Part shown: positions 15,087-15,748 of the stretch, piece after piece | Numbering within the stretch: the first letter of the stretch is position 1 | Layout: every line of letters begins with the position of its first letter | Source of the DNA: a virus | Taxonomy: Duplodnaviria; Heunggongvirae; Uroviricota; Caudoviricetes | Length of the DNA: 44,221 bases | IMG/VR virus record: IMGVR_UViG_2721755643_000005 | Strand: one strand, 5' to 3' | Program-made: the position numbers and the translations under genes | The notes under the pieces: generated by a model | What the model was told of the DNA's origin: nothing | What the model saw: only the letters and a program-made list of their open reading frames with translations | Database searches by the model: none

Positions 15087-15344
15087 ATACAGCGAACTCC
15101 ATTGGTTTAGTTGGATATTTACTGTGCTGGACAAAAACGGTTTGCAGGGAAATCTTAGTTAAGTAGAATGACTGCGGGTGCTTGAGGCTATCTGCCTCGG
15201 GCATGAACACCAACGGCAGATAGAGAAAAGCCCCGGTTAACATTACGCGTCCTGCAAGACGCTTAACATTAATCTGAGGCCAATTTCATGCTAGACACAT
15301 GTAGGTTAGCCTCTTACGTGCCGAAAGGCAAGGAGAAGCAGGCT

Positions 15345-15500
15345 ATGAAGCAGCAAAAGGCGATGTTAATCGCCCTGATCGTCATCTGTTTAACCGTCAT
15401 TGTGACGGCACTGGTAACGAGGAAAGACCTCTATGAGGTACGAATCCGAACCGGCCAGACGGAGGTCGCTGTCTTCGTAGACTACGAATCTAGAGAGTAA
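15345..15500 (+). CDS. hok: Hok/Gef-family type I toxin
   Basis: 51-aa MKQQKAMLIALIVICLTVIVTALVTRKDLYEVRIRTGQTEVAVFVDYESRE closely resembles HokD/RelF; AAGGAGAAG SD; upstream leader resembles hok mRNA leaders; 3' hairpin GGCGGGAG...CTCCCGCC. Confidence 0.8.
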   Translation: MKQQKAMLIALIVICLTVIVTALVTRKDLYEVRIRTGQTEVAVFVDYESRE

Positions 15501-15748
15501 GAGTGACCAGGCGGGAGAGTAATCTCCCGCCACCTTTGATGTGTCAGGCATCCTCAACGCACCCGCCACCCGGCGGTTTTGACAATTTCTATGTTGTGTT
15601 TCACATTATTTGTGTATTTGGTGTGAAAAGTAGTTGATCAAAGTCTTCCGGTAAACTTATTTTAATGGTATAGCCATAGTATCAAAGCATTTATACATGG
15701 ATGTAACAGTGTCACTACACGGTGATAACGGTAAGATGGGAGGTAAGA

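Follow-up and report, generated by a model that had tools for sequence, protein, structure and literature searches.

The DNA analysed here (the window) is the 44,221-nucleotide IMG/VR virus record IMGVR_UViG_2721755643_000005, assigned to the Caudoviricetes. It carries a toxin gene of the Hok/Gef family, hok, an overlapping reading frame, mok, the sequence elements of a structured hok mRNA and, on the opposite strand, the putative antisense RNA Sok (Table 1). Taken together, these very probably form a complete hok/mok/sok type I toxin-antitoxin (TA) module at 15141-15580, belonging to the hokW/hokD lineage as found on Escherichia coli lambdoid prophages. The system is already known and widely annotated, and the present locus is an ordinary complete copy of it; what our analysis adds are positions, exact to the base, of Sok, mok and the cis elements, an end of the locus at around 15580, and a rare allele with tyrosine at both periplasmic positions of the toxin.

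An initial annotation, made from the sequence alone, had proposed a hok/sok-type type I TA locus with a 51-aa Hok/Gef-family toxin, and the Pfam, PHROG and Rfam matches as well as homology to sokW bear this out. The protein search, on which that annotation had staked the family assignment, gave a clear result: the hok open reading frame (ORF) covers all 42 profile positions of Pfam PF01848 HOK_GEF with 80.4 bits (cut-off 22; E = 7e-23) and matches PHROG 251, 'MokW-like host killing', with E = 4.6e-31. Its score against the NCBIfam Hok subfamily model, 51.7 bits, fell short of the strict cut-off of 73, and PADLOC had no model for the toxin or the neighbouring ORFs. The residues conserved in the Hok logo are M1, C16, T18, L30, C31, E32 and E41 (preprint 10.1101/2025.08.07.668861); here C15, T17, L29, E31 and E40 are kept and the C31-equivalent is Tyr30, which leaves the seven-residue set incomplete. 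This set is no formal criterion of the Hok family, however, and HokB-type members likewise encode Tyr at the C31-equivalent.

The in-frame upstream ATG, in which the initial annotation had seen the start of a mok-like N-terminal extension, indeed opens a 70-aa frame preceded by its own GAGG Shine-Dalgarno sequence, and its residues align one by one with those of MokW of 933W and of Mok of an R1-type plasmid. It overlaps hok as in the R1 model, and coupling of its translation to that of hok is predicted. The hok-like structured leader was recovered as well by the Rfam scan that had been suggested as a check: in a scan of the whole window at gathering thresholds, the covariance model RF01794 ('sok') matched 15176-15350 on the plus strand with 113.4 bits (gathering score 59; E = 3.6e-25), covering model positions 1-157 in full. 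As a call of the antitoxin RNA this match was rejected: it lies on the plus strand, and what the model represents is the leader of the hok mRNA, with the hok AUG at its end.

Table 1. Coordinates of the hok/mok/sok module and of the features within it (window positions)
Feature	Position	Strand	Details
hok/mok promoter	15141-15169	+	TTTGCA, 17-nt spacer, TAGAAT; promoter scan
Full-length hok mRNA	15176-15580	+	405 nt; both ends putative
tac (translational activator)	15176-15187	+	mRNA 5' end; pairs with fbi in the full-length minimum free energy (MFE) fold
ucb (upstream complementary box)	15228-15234	+	pairs with tac in 3'-truncated folds
Sok-target hairpin	15276-15313	+	mok GAGG 15276-15279 opposite dcb 15309-15313; mok AUG (15288) in stem
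mok reading frame	15288-15500	+	70 aa, in frame with hok; ORF list, alignment to MokW and R1 Mok
hok toxin gene	15345-15500	+	51 aa; Shine-Dalgarno AAGGAG 15331-15336; protein MKQQKAMLIALIVICLTVIVTALVTRKDLYEVRIRTGQTEVAVFVDYESRE
Codon 30, TAT (Tyr)	15432-15434	+	conserved Cys replaced; alignment
TadA-type A-to-I site, codon 47 TAC	15483-15485	+	stem-loop 15478-15492; 4-bp stem, 7-nt loop CUACGAA
Strong 3' hairpin	15510-15531	+	9 bp, -19.7 kcal/mol, just past stop codon
fbi (fold-back inhibition)	15552-15564	+	12 bp with one bulge to tac in MFE fold
Weak terminator-like hairpin	15563-15580	+	CCGCC-ACCC-GGCGG then UUUU; -9.3 kcal/mol, 4 U
Sok antisense RNA	15296 to 15226	-	71 nt; coordinates transferred by alignment from sokW misc_RNA of 933W (71 nt) and VT2-Sakai
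sok promoter	15331-15303	-	-35 TTGCCT 15331-15326, 17-nt spacer, -10 TAACCT 15308-15303; hexamers read from sequence

The hok mRNA, Sok and their relatives

The hok promoter marks the left edge of the locus and was the sole sigma-70-like site found by the scan in 14900-15800. Its TAGAAT ends 7 nt ahead of the putative transcript start, which is position 1 of the Rfam model and aligns with GGCGCUUGAGG, the 5' end of the R1-type locus. The 405-nt mRNA folds at -167 kcal/mol against a shuffled mean of -122 +/- 5 (z = -8.4), and none of 100 shuffles folded as well. Besides the pairing of tac with fbi, the full-length fold shows the mok Shine-Dalgarno region paired with 15231-15234, i.e. with ucb. 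When the mRNA was trimmed to 15548, 15540 or 15530, its 5' end re-paired to 15228-15234, and in the two shorter forms (15540 and 15530) the Sok-target hairpin appeared, which matches the third helix of the Rfam model. The loop of this hairpin, CUAGACA (15291-15297), begins with the YUNR motif CUAG and complements the 5'-terminal bases of Sok.

The full-length mRNA is hence predicted to be locked by tac and fbi and to change to tac-ucb pairing after 3' processing, as in the R1-type model summarised in PMC9841398. As a control, the same folding procedure was applied to the R1-type locus, where it recovers the published tac-fbi pairing GGCGCUU/AAGCGCC; compared with this, the pair of the present locus, GGGUGCUU/AACGCACCC, shows a compensatory difference. 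Within the clade, covariation of tac and fbi was uninformative, their columns being near-invariant in 60 unique related loci, and the compensatory change was seen only against R1. The hairpin 3' of the stop codon, also noted initially, is present and strong, has a counterpart at the aligned site of the R1-type locus, and is where 3' processing to the translatable mRNA is expected to stop. Homology to other hok loci stops at 15566, and where majority-type hokD loci have a terminator of -12.8 kcal/mol and a long U tract, the window has the weak terminator-like hairpin; in 933W, no terminator at all follows fbi. The interval originally given, 15100-15560, therefore encloses a real locus but ends around 20 nt too early, since fbi and the terminator-like hairpin reach beyond it.

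On the minus strand, the predicted fold of Sok has 15 unpaired nucleotides as its 5' tail, followed by a long imperfect hairpin and UUUU (-24 kcal/mol, z = -2.9), i.e. the classical Sok shape. As the R1 model has it, Sok would be cis-encoded over the mok start region, with a promoter and a terminator hairpin of its own. The antisense RNA that had been expected over the leader, and that the initial annotation could not delimit, can in this way be placed at the sequence level by homology to sokW. The 49 bp at 15297-15345, which contain the sok -35 and -10 elements, are identical in 933W, Sakai, CP53 and VL40, and the two hexamers are positionally equivalent to TTGCGC/TATCCT of the R1-type locus. 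In Sakai, mutation of the sokW -10 element resulted in weaker protection against HokW (PMC8621323).

Sok and SokW differ at 8 of 71 nt, with six of the eight differences within the first 16 nt, i.e. in the 5' tail. Since the differences are concentrated in the recognition tail, cross-recognition between the Sok type of the window and the SokW type appears doubtful from a comparison of their sequences. Across 94 prophage loci, the segment 15280-15299, comprising the Sok 5' tail and the target loop, is the sole variable patch in an otherwise near-invariant locus and falls into about five discrete types. Such discrete Sok-tail types are expected if co-resident hok loci, of which a genome may hold up to nine, avoid cross-regulation.

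Relatives of the locus are abundant. Of 5426 complete E. coli genomes, 4710 contained sequence related to a 501-bp query; the median was two places per genome and the maximum nine, and the matches lay mostly under coding sequences (CDSs) named HokD or 'Hok/Gef family protein'. Matches were also present in 79 phage records, mostly of Stx-converting phages, among which 933W and VT2-Sakai have mokW, hokW and a sokW antisense RNA annotated. The hokW-mokW-sokW locus of 933W and Sp5/VT2-Sakai shares with the window 93.4% DNA identity over 15141-15566, 48 of 51 toxin residues, the module architecture, the lambdoid-prophage setting, the sok promoter region and the tac, ucb, dcb and fbi sequences. The differences lie in the toxin, with Cys30 (TGC) and a C-terminal EK in HokW compared with Tyr30 (TAT) and a C-terminal RE in the window, in the 3' flank after fbi, which is unlike that of the window in 933W and Sp5, and in the position within the phage: hokW lies near the right genome end of 933W beside a ygiW-like gene, whereas the present locus lies between replication genes and a Q-like antiterminator. 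Experiments have established hokW-sokW as a type I TA system in which HokW is toxic and sokW counteracts it, with a partial dependence on RNase III and Hfq; after SOS induction by mitomycin C, the locus approximately doubles the release of Sp5 phage (PMC8621323).

To the same toxin lineage belongs hokD (relF) of the Qin prophage of K-12, with 46 of 51 residues identical and Cys30 in place of Tyr30; HokD is toxic on overexpression (preprint 10.1101/2025.08.07.668861). Full-length hokD loci, e.g. that of strain CP53, show 94.1% DNA identity over 15141-15566 and the same Sok-tail type; in contrast, K-12 hokD, located behind relBE, retains only the part from window position 15331 on and is devoid of the hok promoter, tac, ucb, sok and the mok start. 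More distant is R1 hok/sok (parB), which has the same elements in the same order, mok in frame with hok, the predicted tac-fbi/tac-ucb switch, the 3' hairpin and a sok promoter placed over the hok Shine-Dalgarno region. The toxin, however, matches R1 Hok, in which Cys31 is hard-coded, at no more than 22 of 51 residues, and blastn found no DNA similarity between the window locus and the R1-type plasmid locus. The Sok hairpin of the window is also 16 nt longer, and the R1 locus is plasmid-borne and acts in post-segregational killing.

Family membership at the level of both protein and leader, the presence and conservation of each cis element and the predicted switch come from the present analysis, whereas we infer the transcript ends, expression, toxicity and biological role of the locus, and carry its mechanism over by homology from R1 hok/sok and Sp5 hokW-sokW. 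By this analogy, a stable mRNA of around 405 nt would be made from the hok/mok promoter and would at first be inert, with the 5' tac paired with fbi near the 3' end and ucb covering the mok ribosome-binding site. Gradual shortening from the 3' end, as far as the strong hairpin, would strip off fbi, upon which the 5' end would pair with ucb, the target hairpin would form and the mok start region would be exposed, with translation of mok coupled to that of hok. The 5' tail of the unstable 71-nt Sok would attach to the target loop and to the start region of mok, which would block translation of both frames and lead to cleavage of the duplex. Upon a drop in Sok, for instance after prophage loss or induction, Hok would be made and the inner membrane damaged.

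Codons 30 and 47 of the toxin gene

The initial annotation named the elements of the module correctly but overlooked fbi, the exchange of Cys30 for Tyr and the TadA-type site at Tyr47. In the 60 unique related loci, nearly all columns of 15230-15470 are invariant, and the window deviates at 15433-15434, with TAT versus TGC or TGT. VL40 possesses the same haplotype with TGC, i.e. Cys30: its 501-bp region (15100-15600) differs from the window solely at 15433-15434, and over 13600-17085 (~3.4 kb) there is one further difference beyond codon 30. Therefore, the change is a tandem GC-to-AT substitution.

This allele is rare. A 41-nt probe seeding solely on TAT found it in 4 of the 5426 complete E. 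coli genomes, and a TAC version on the same backbone was found in none of the 5426. In a large contig collection, the exact Tyr30 protein was present on 111 contigs, compared with at least 1000 for the Cys form, and a Trp30 variant on 24. TAC at codon 30 occurs on one IMG/VR contig (IMGVR_UViG_2619619129_000007, 3219-3238), on a hokD backbone and in the context CTACGAG; this allele fits the core TACG motif of TadA, unlike the TAT of the window. When three collections were searched with the pattern AGGAAAGACCTCTAYGAGGT, a single hok-like match was obtained, from IMG/VR, which is this same TAC allele. The seven matches from metagenomes and GTDB were all unrelated to hok and attributed to chance.

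In E. coli hok genes, one of the periplasmic positions has been described as always a hard-coded Cys and the other as Tyr encoded by TAC within TACG, 'never TAT' (PMC5630033). Cys occupies the C31-equivalent in 92% of 1264 Hok peptides, the Tyr cases being hokB-type with TAC-G (preprint 10.1101/2025.08.07.668861), and the change of TAC to TAT abolishes TadA editing (PMC12255301). Because TAT lies outside the published TadA motif rules (taken here from PMC12255301 and PMC5630033), Tyr30 would be non-editable. At codon 47, a TAC lies in the YTACGAA stem-loop that characterizes TadA-edited hok genes, but the hard-coded Cys partner is absent, being replaced by TAT-Tyr30. YTACGAA is kept at codon 47 in 93 of 94 related loci, and its hairpin is present in the full-length and truncated MFE folds, whereas the isolated 17-mer prefers another weak fold.

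Going by this motif, editing at codon 47 would recode Tyr47 to Cys. The allele can have at most one periplasmic Cys, i.e. Cys47, and solely after TadA editing of UAC, so that the toxicity-boosting intramolecular disulfide of the HokB type cannot form. The arrangement recalls hokB/sokB, in which the position-29/30 site likewise encodes Tyr, the two periplasmic positions form a Tyr/Cys pair and the editing site lies in a YTACGAA stem-loop (PMC5630033, PMC12255301). In hokB, however, an editable TAC codon 29 is combined with a hard-coded Cys46, while the window combines a non-editable TAT codon 30 with an editable TAC codon 47. Therefore, the published rule of one always hard-coded Cys is broken here.

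It is tempting to regard the path from TGC to TAT as a selected two-step disarming, in which a G-to-A change first gave an editable TAC-G and a C-to-T change then removed editability. The TAC intermediate of such a path does exist, on the one IMG/VR contig mentioned above. A single multi-nucleotide mutation explains the tandem change equally well, though, and we therefore consider selection in two steps improbable.

Prophage setting and neighbouring features

Placement of the locus inside a prophage by the initial annotation proved correct: the prophage is lambdoid, with the replication genes to one side of the locus and the Q-like antiterminator, tRNA and lysis genes to the other. The annotated prophage of FDAARGOS_943 is 99.4% identical over window positions 13362-19730, and has cI/cro-like, YdaT and helicase replication genes on one side of hok and DUF1367, DUF1364, a Q-like antiterminator, four tRNAs and lysis genes on the other. 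The neighbouring gene at window 14365-14786 is, in this annotated relative, a pseudogene with a frameshift. The lysozyme gene of FDAARGOS_943 is split by an IS600 (L095, 19733-20997) that is missing from the window at around 19727-19730, and the left end of the window (1-1503) differs from that strain; the window prophage may be less degraded than the FDAARGOS_943 one.

Directly upstream of the hok promoter lies an ORF (14907-15086, plus strand) for a very hydrophobic protein of 59 aa, preceded by a GGGGG Shine-Dalgarno-like sequence. It had no Pfam, PHROG or PADLOC match, and is a gene call in some assemblies and absent from RefSeq. On the other side, two plus-strand ORFs, 15749-15955 (phrog_9843) and 15958-16776 (phrog_3630), always follow this hok haplotype with its non-canonical 3' flank, the second encoding a 272-aa protein with hydrophobic N-terminal segments. 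They may be moron or defence cargo; PADLOC gave no significant match for either. In one assembly (L014, 1516-2424, minus strand), an AbiH-domain gene stands directly upstream of the same Tyr30 hok allele and replaces the usual DUF7167-containing region, which suggests a defence-gene hot spot beside hok.

Further RNA features were found elsewhere in the window. The RalA small RNA (Rfam RF02694, 207 bits) is located at 1557-1735 on the plus strand; as RalA is the antitoxin RNA of RalR/RalA, this makes a second RNA-antitoxin TA module in the same prophage region. On the minus strand, a C4 antisense RNA (6411-6498, 75.7 bits) lies beside isrK (6523-6599, 61.5 bits), both found by Rfam, and a Rha-family regulator gene is located a few hundred bases from C4/isrK in the FDAARGOS_943 prophage. 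The C4/isrK pair looks like a P1/P7-style antirepressor control cassette. Four phage tRNA genes, for Met(CAT), Arg(TCT), Thr(TGT) and Val(TAC), occupy 18807-19114 on the plus strand, the first of which is given as tRNA-Ile in the RefSeq annotation of a related strain.

Alternative readings and meaning of the locus

Short ORFs are common in general (30 of at least 20 aa in 1.7 kb), and a hydrophobic one next to a GC-rich hairpin could in principle resemble hok without being part of any TA locus. Such a coincidence is so improbable as to be negligible, given the E values of the Pfam, Rfam and PHROG matches and 93-94% identity to an annotated and tested locus; chance resemblance is ruled out for all the elements described. 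A decaying remnant, with the toxin disarmed by C30Y, the terminator lost and Sok and the leader mere passengers of a defective prophage, deserves more attention. It would account for the replaced terminator, for a tandem two-base change that removes both the Cys and any TadA editability, and for the neighbouring pseudogene in the related prophage. Yet the mok and hok ORFs and both promoters are intact, as are tac, ucb, dcb, fbi and the 3' hairpin, and the 501-bp region is that of the VL40 Cys30 haplotype bar the two codon-30 bases. As to the missing canonical terminator, 933W likewise has none after fbi, and hokW-sokW of Sp5, with the same flank after fbi as 933W, is functional. The window prophage moreover has a full structural gene set and is free of the lysis-disrupting IS600 of FDAARGOS_943. 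We therefore hold decay to be unlikely.

The consequence of Tyr30 for toxicity is the more difficult question. Edited HokB is highly toxic only if Cys29, Cys46 and DsbA are all present (PMC12214031), and the non-editable Tyr29 form of HokB is far less toxic than Cys29 (PMC5630033, PMC12214031). By analogy, the Tyr30 toxin may be attenuated, a reading for and against which we find ourselves evenly divided. That the module is fully functional, with Tyr30 as toxic as Cys30 and a neutral polymorphism hitch-hiking in one prophage lineage, is quite plausible too, if somewhat short of probable. The regulatory elements are all intact and conserved, which fits continued selection on the module, 42 of 45 diverse Hok homologues are toxic, and single alanine mutants of R1 Hok at conserved residues, C31A included, are still toxic on overexpression (preprint 10.1101/2025.08.07.668861). 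Equal toxicity sits less well with the HokB comparison, with the position of this Cys among the seven most conserved Hok residues and with the low frequency of the Tyr30 allele in complete genomes; further rare losses of Cys30 also exist, i.e. Trp30 and the TAC-encoded Tyr30.

For a complete module of the hokW/hokD lineage, certain points have to be set on the other side of the balance. As the terminator after fbi is weak and non-canonical, the real 3' end of the mRNA may lie further downstream than 15580. The terminator scan called no terminator at the locus, the weak hairpin included, although this silence is not evidence of absence. The consensus promoter scan missed the sok promoter, because TAACCT fits at three of six positions only and the scan threshold, 9 of 12 matches, is thus not reached by TTGCCT/TAACCT; the sok promoter therefore rests on homology to the tested Sakai promoter. 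Here, too, the silence of the scan is not evidence of absence, the sequence being the same as the tested Sakai one. The initial annotation had considered that absence of any antisense promoter or RNA would refute the locus; by homology to sokW, an antisense gene and its promoter are present, though the consensus scan found no promoter on the minus strand. The toxic alanine mutants of R1 Hok, C31A among them, mean that Tyr30 may still be toxic, which counts against attenuation as well. Finally, the chromosomal E. coli hok loci tested gave no post-segregational killing (Pedersen and Gerdes 1999, as cited in preprint 10.1101/2025.08.07.668861).

Annotations of hok/sok in lambdoid prophages date back to the 933W genome, the closest relative has already been characterized experimentally, and RefSeq lists the identical toxin as 'Hok/Gef family protein'. 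The value of a complete copy of the module therefore lies mainly in annotation: RefSeq marks the hok CDS only, whereas exact positions are now available for mok, Sok and the cis elements. Were the two-step disarming true, nature would have supplied evidence for an in vivo role of TadA editing at position 30 of HokD/W-type toxins, and Tyr30 together with an editable Tyr47 would make an editing-gated, HokB-like variant of low toxicity (persistence-type) and not a killer. Of specialist interest is the natural allele itself, which combines Tyr30, encoded by a non-editable TAT, with Tyr47 in a perfect TadA loop. VL40 provides its isogenic Cys30 counterpart, and the pair is relevant to how the disulfide and RNA editing set the toxicity of Hok.

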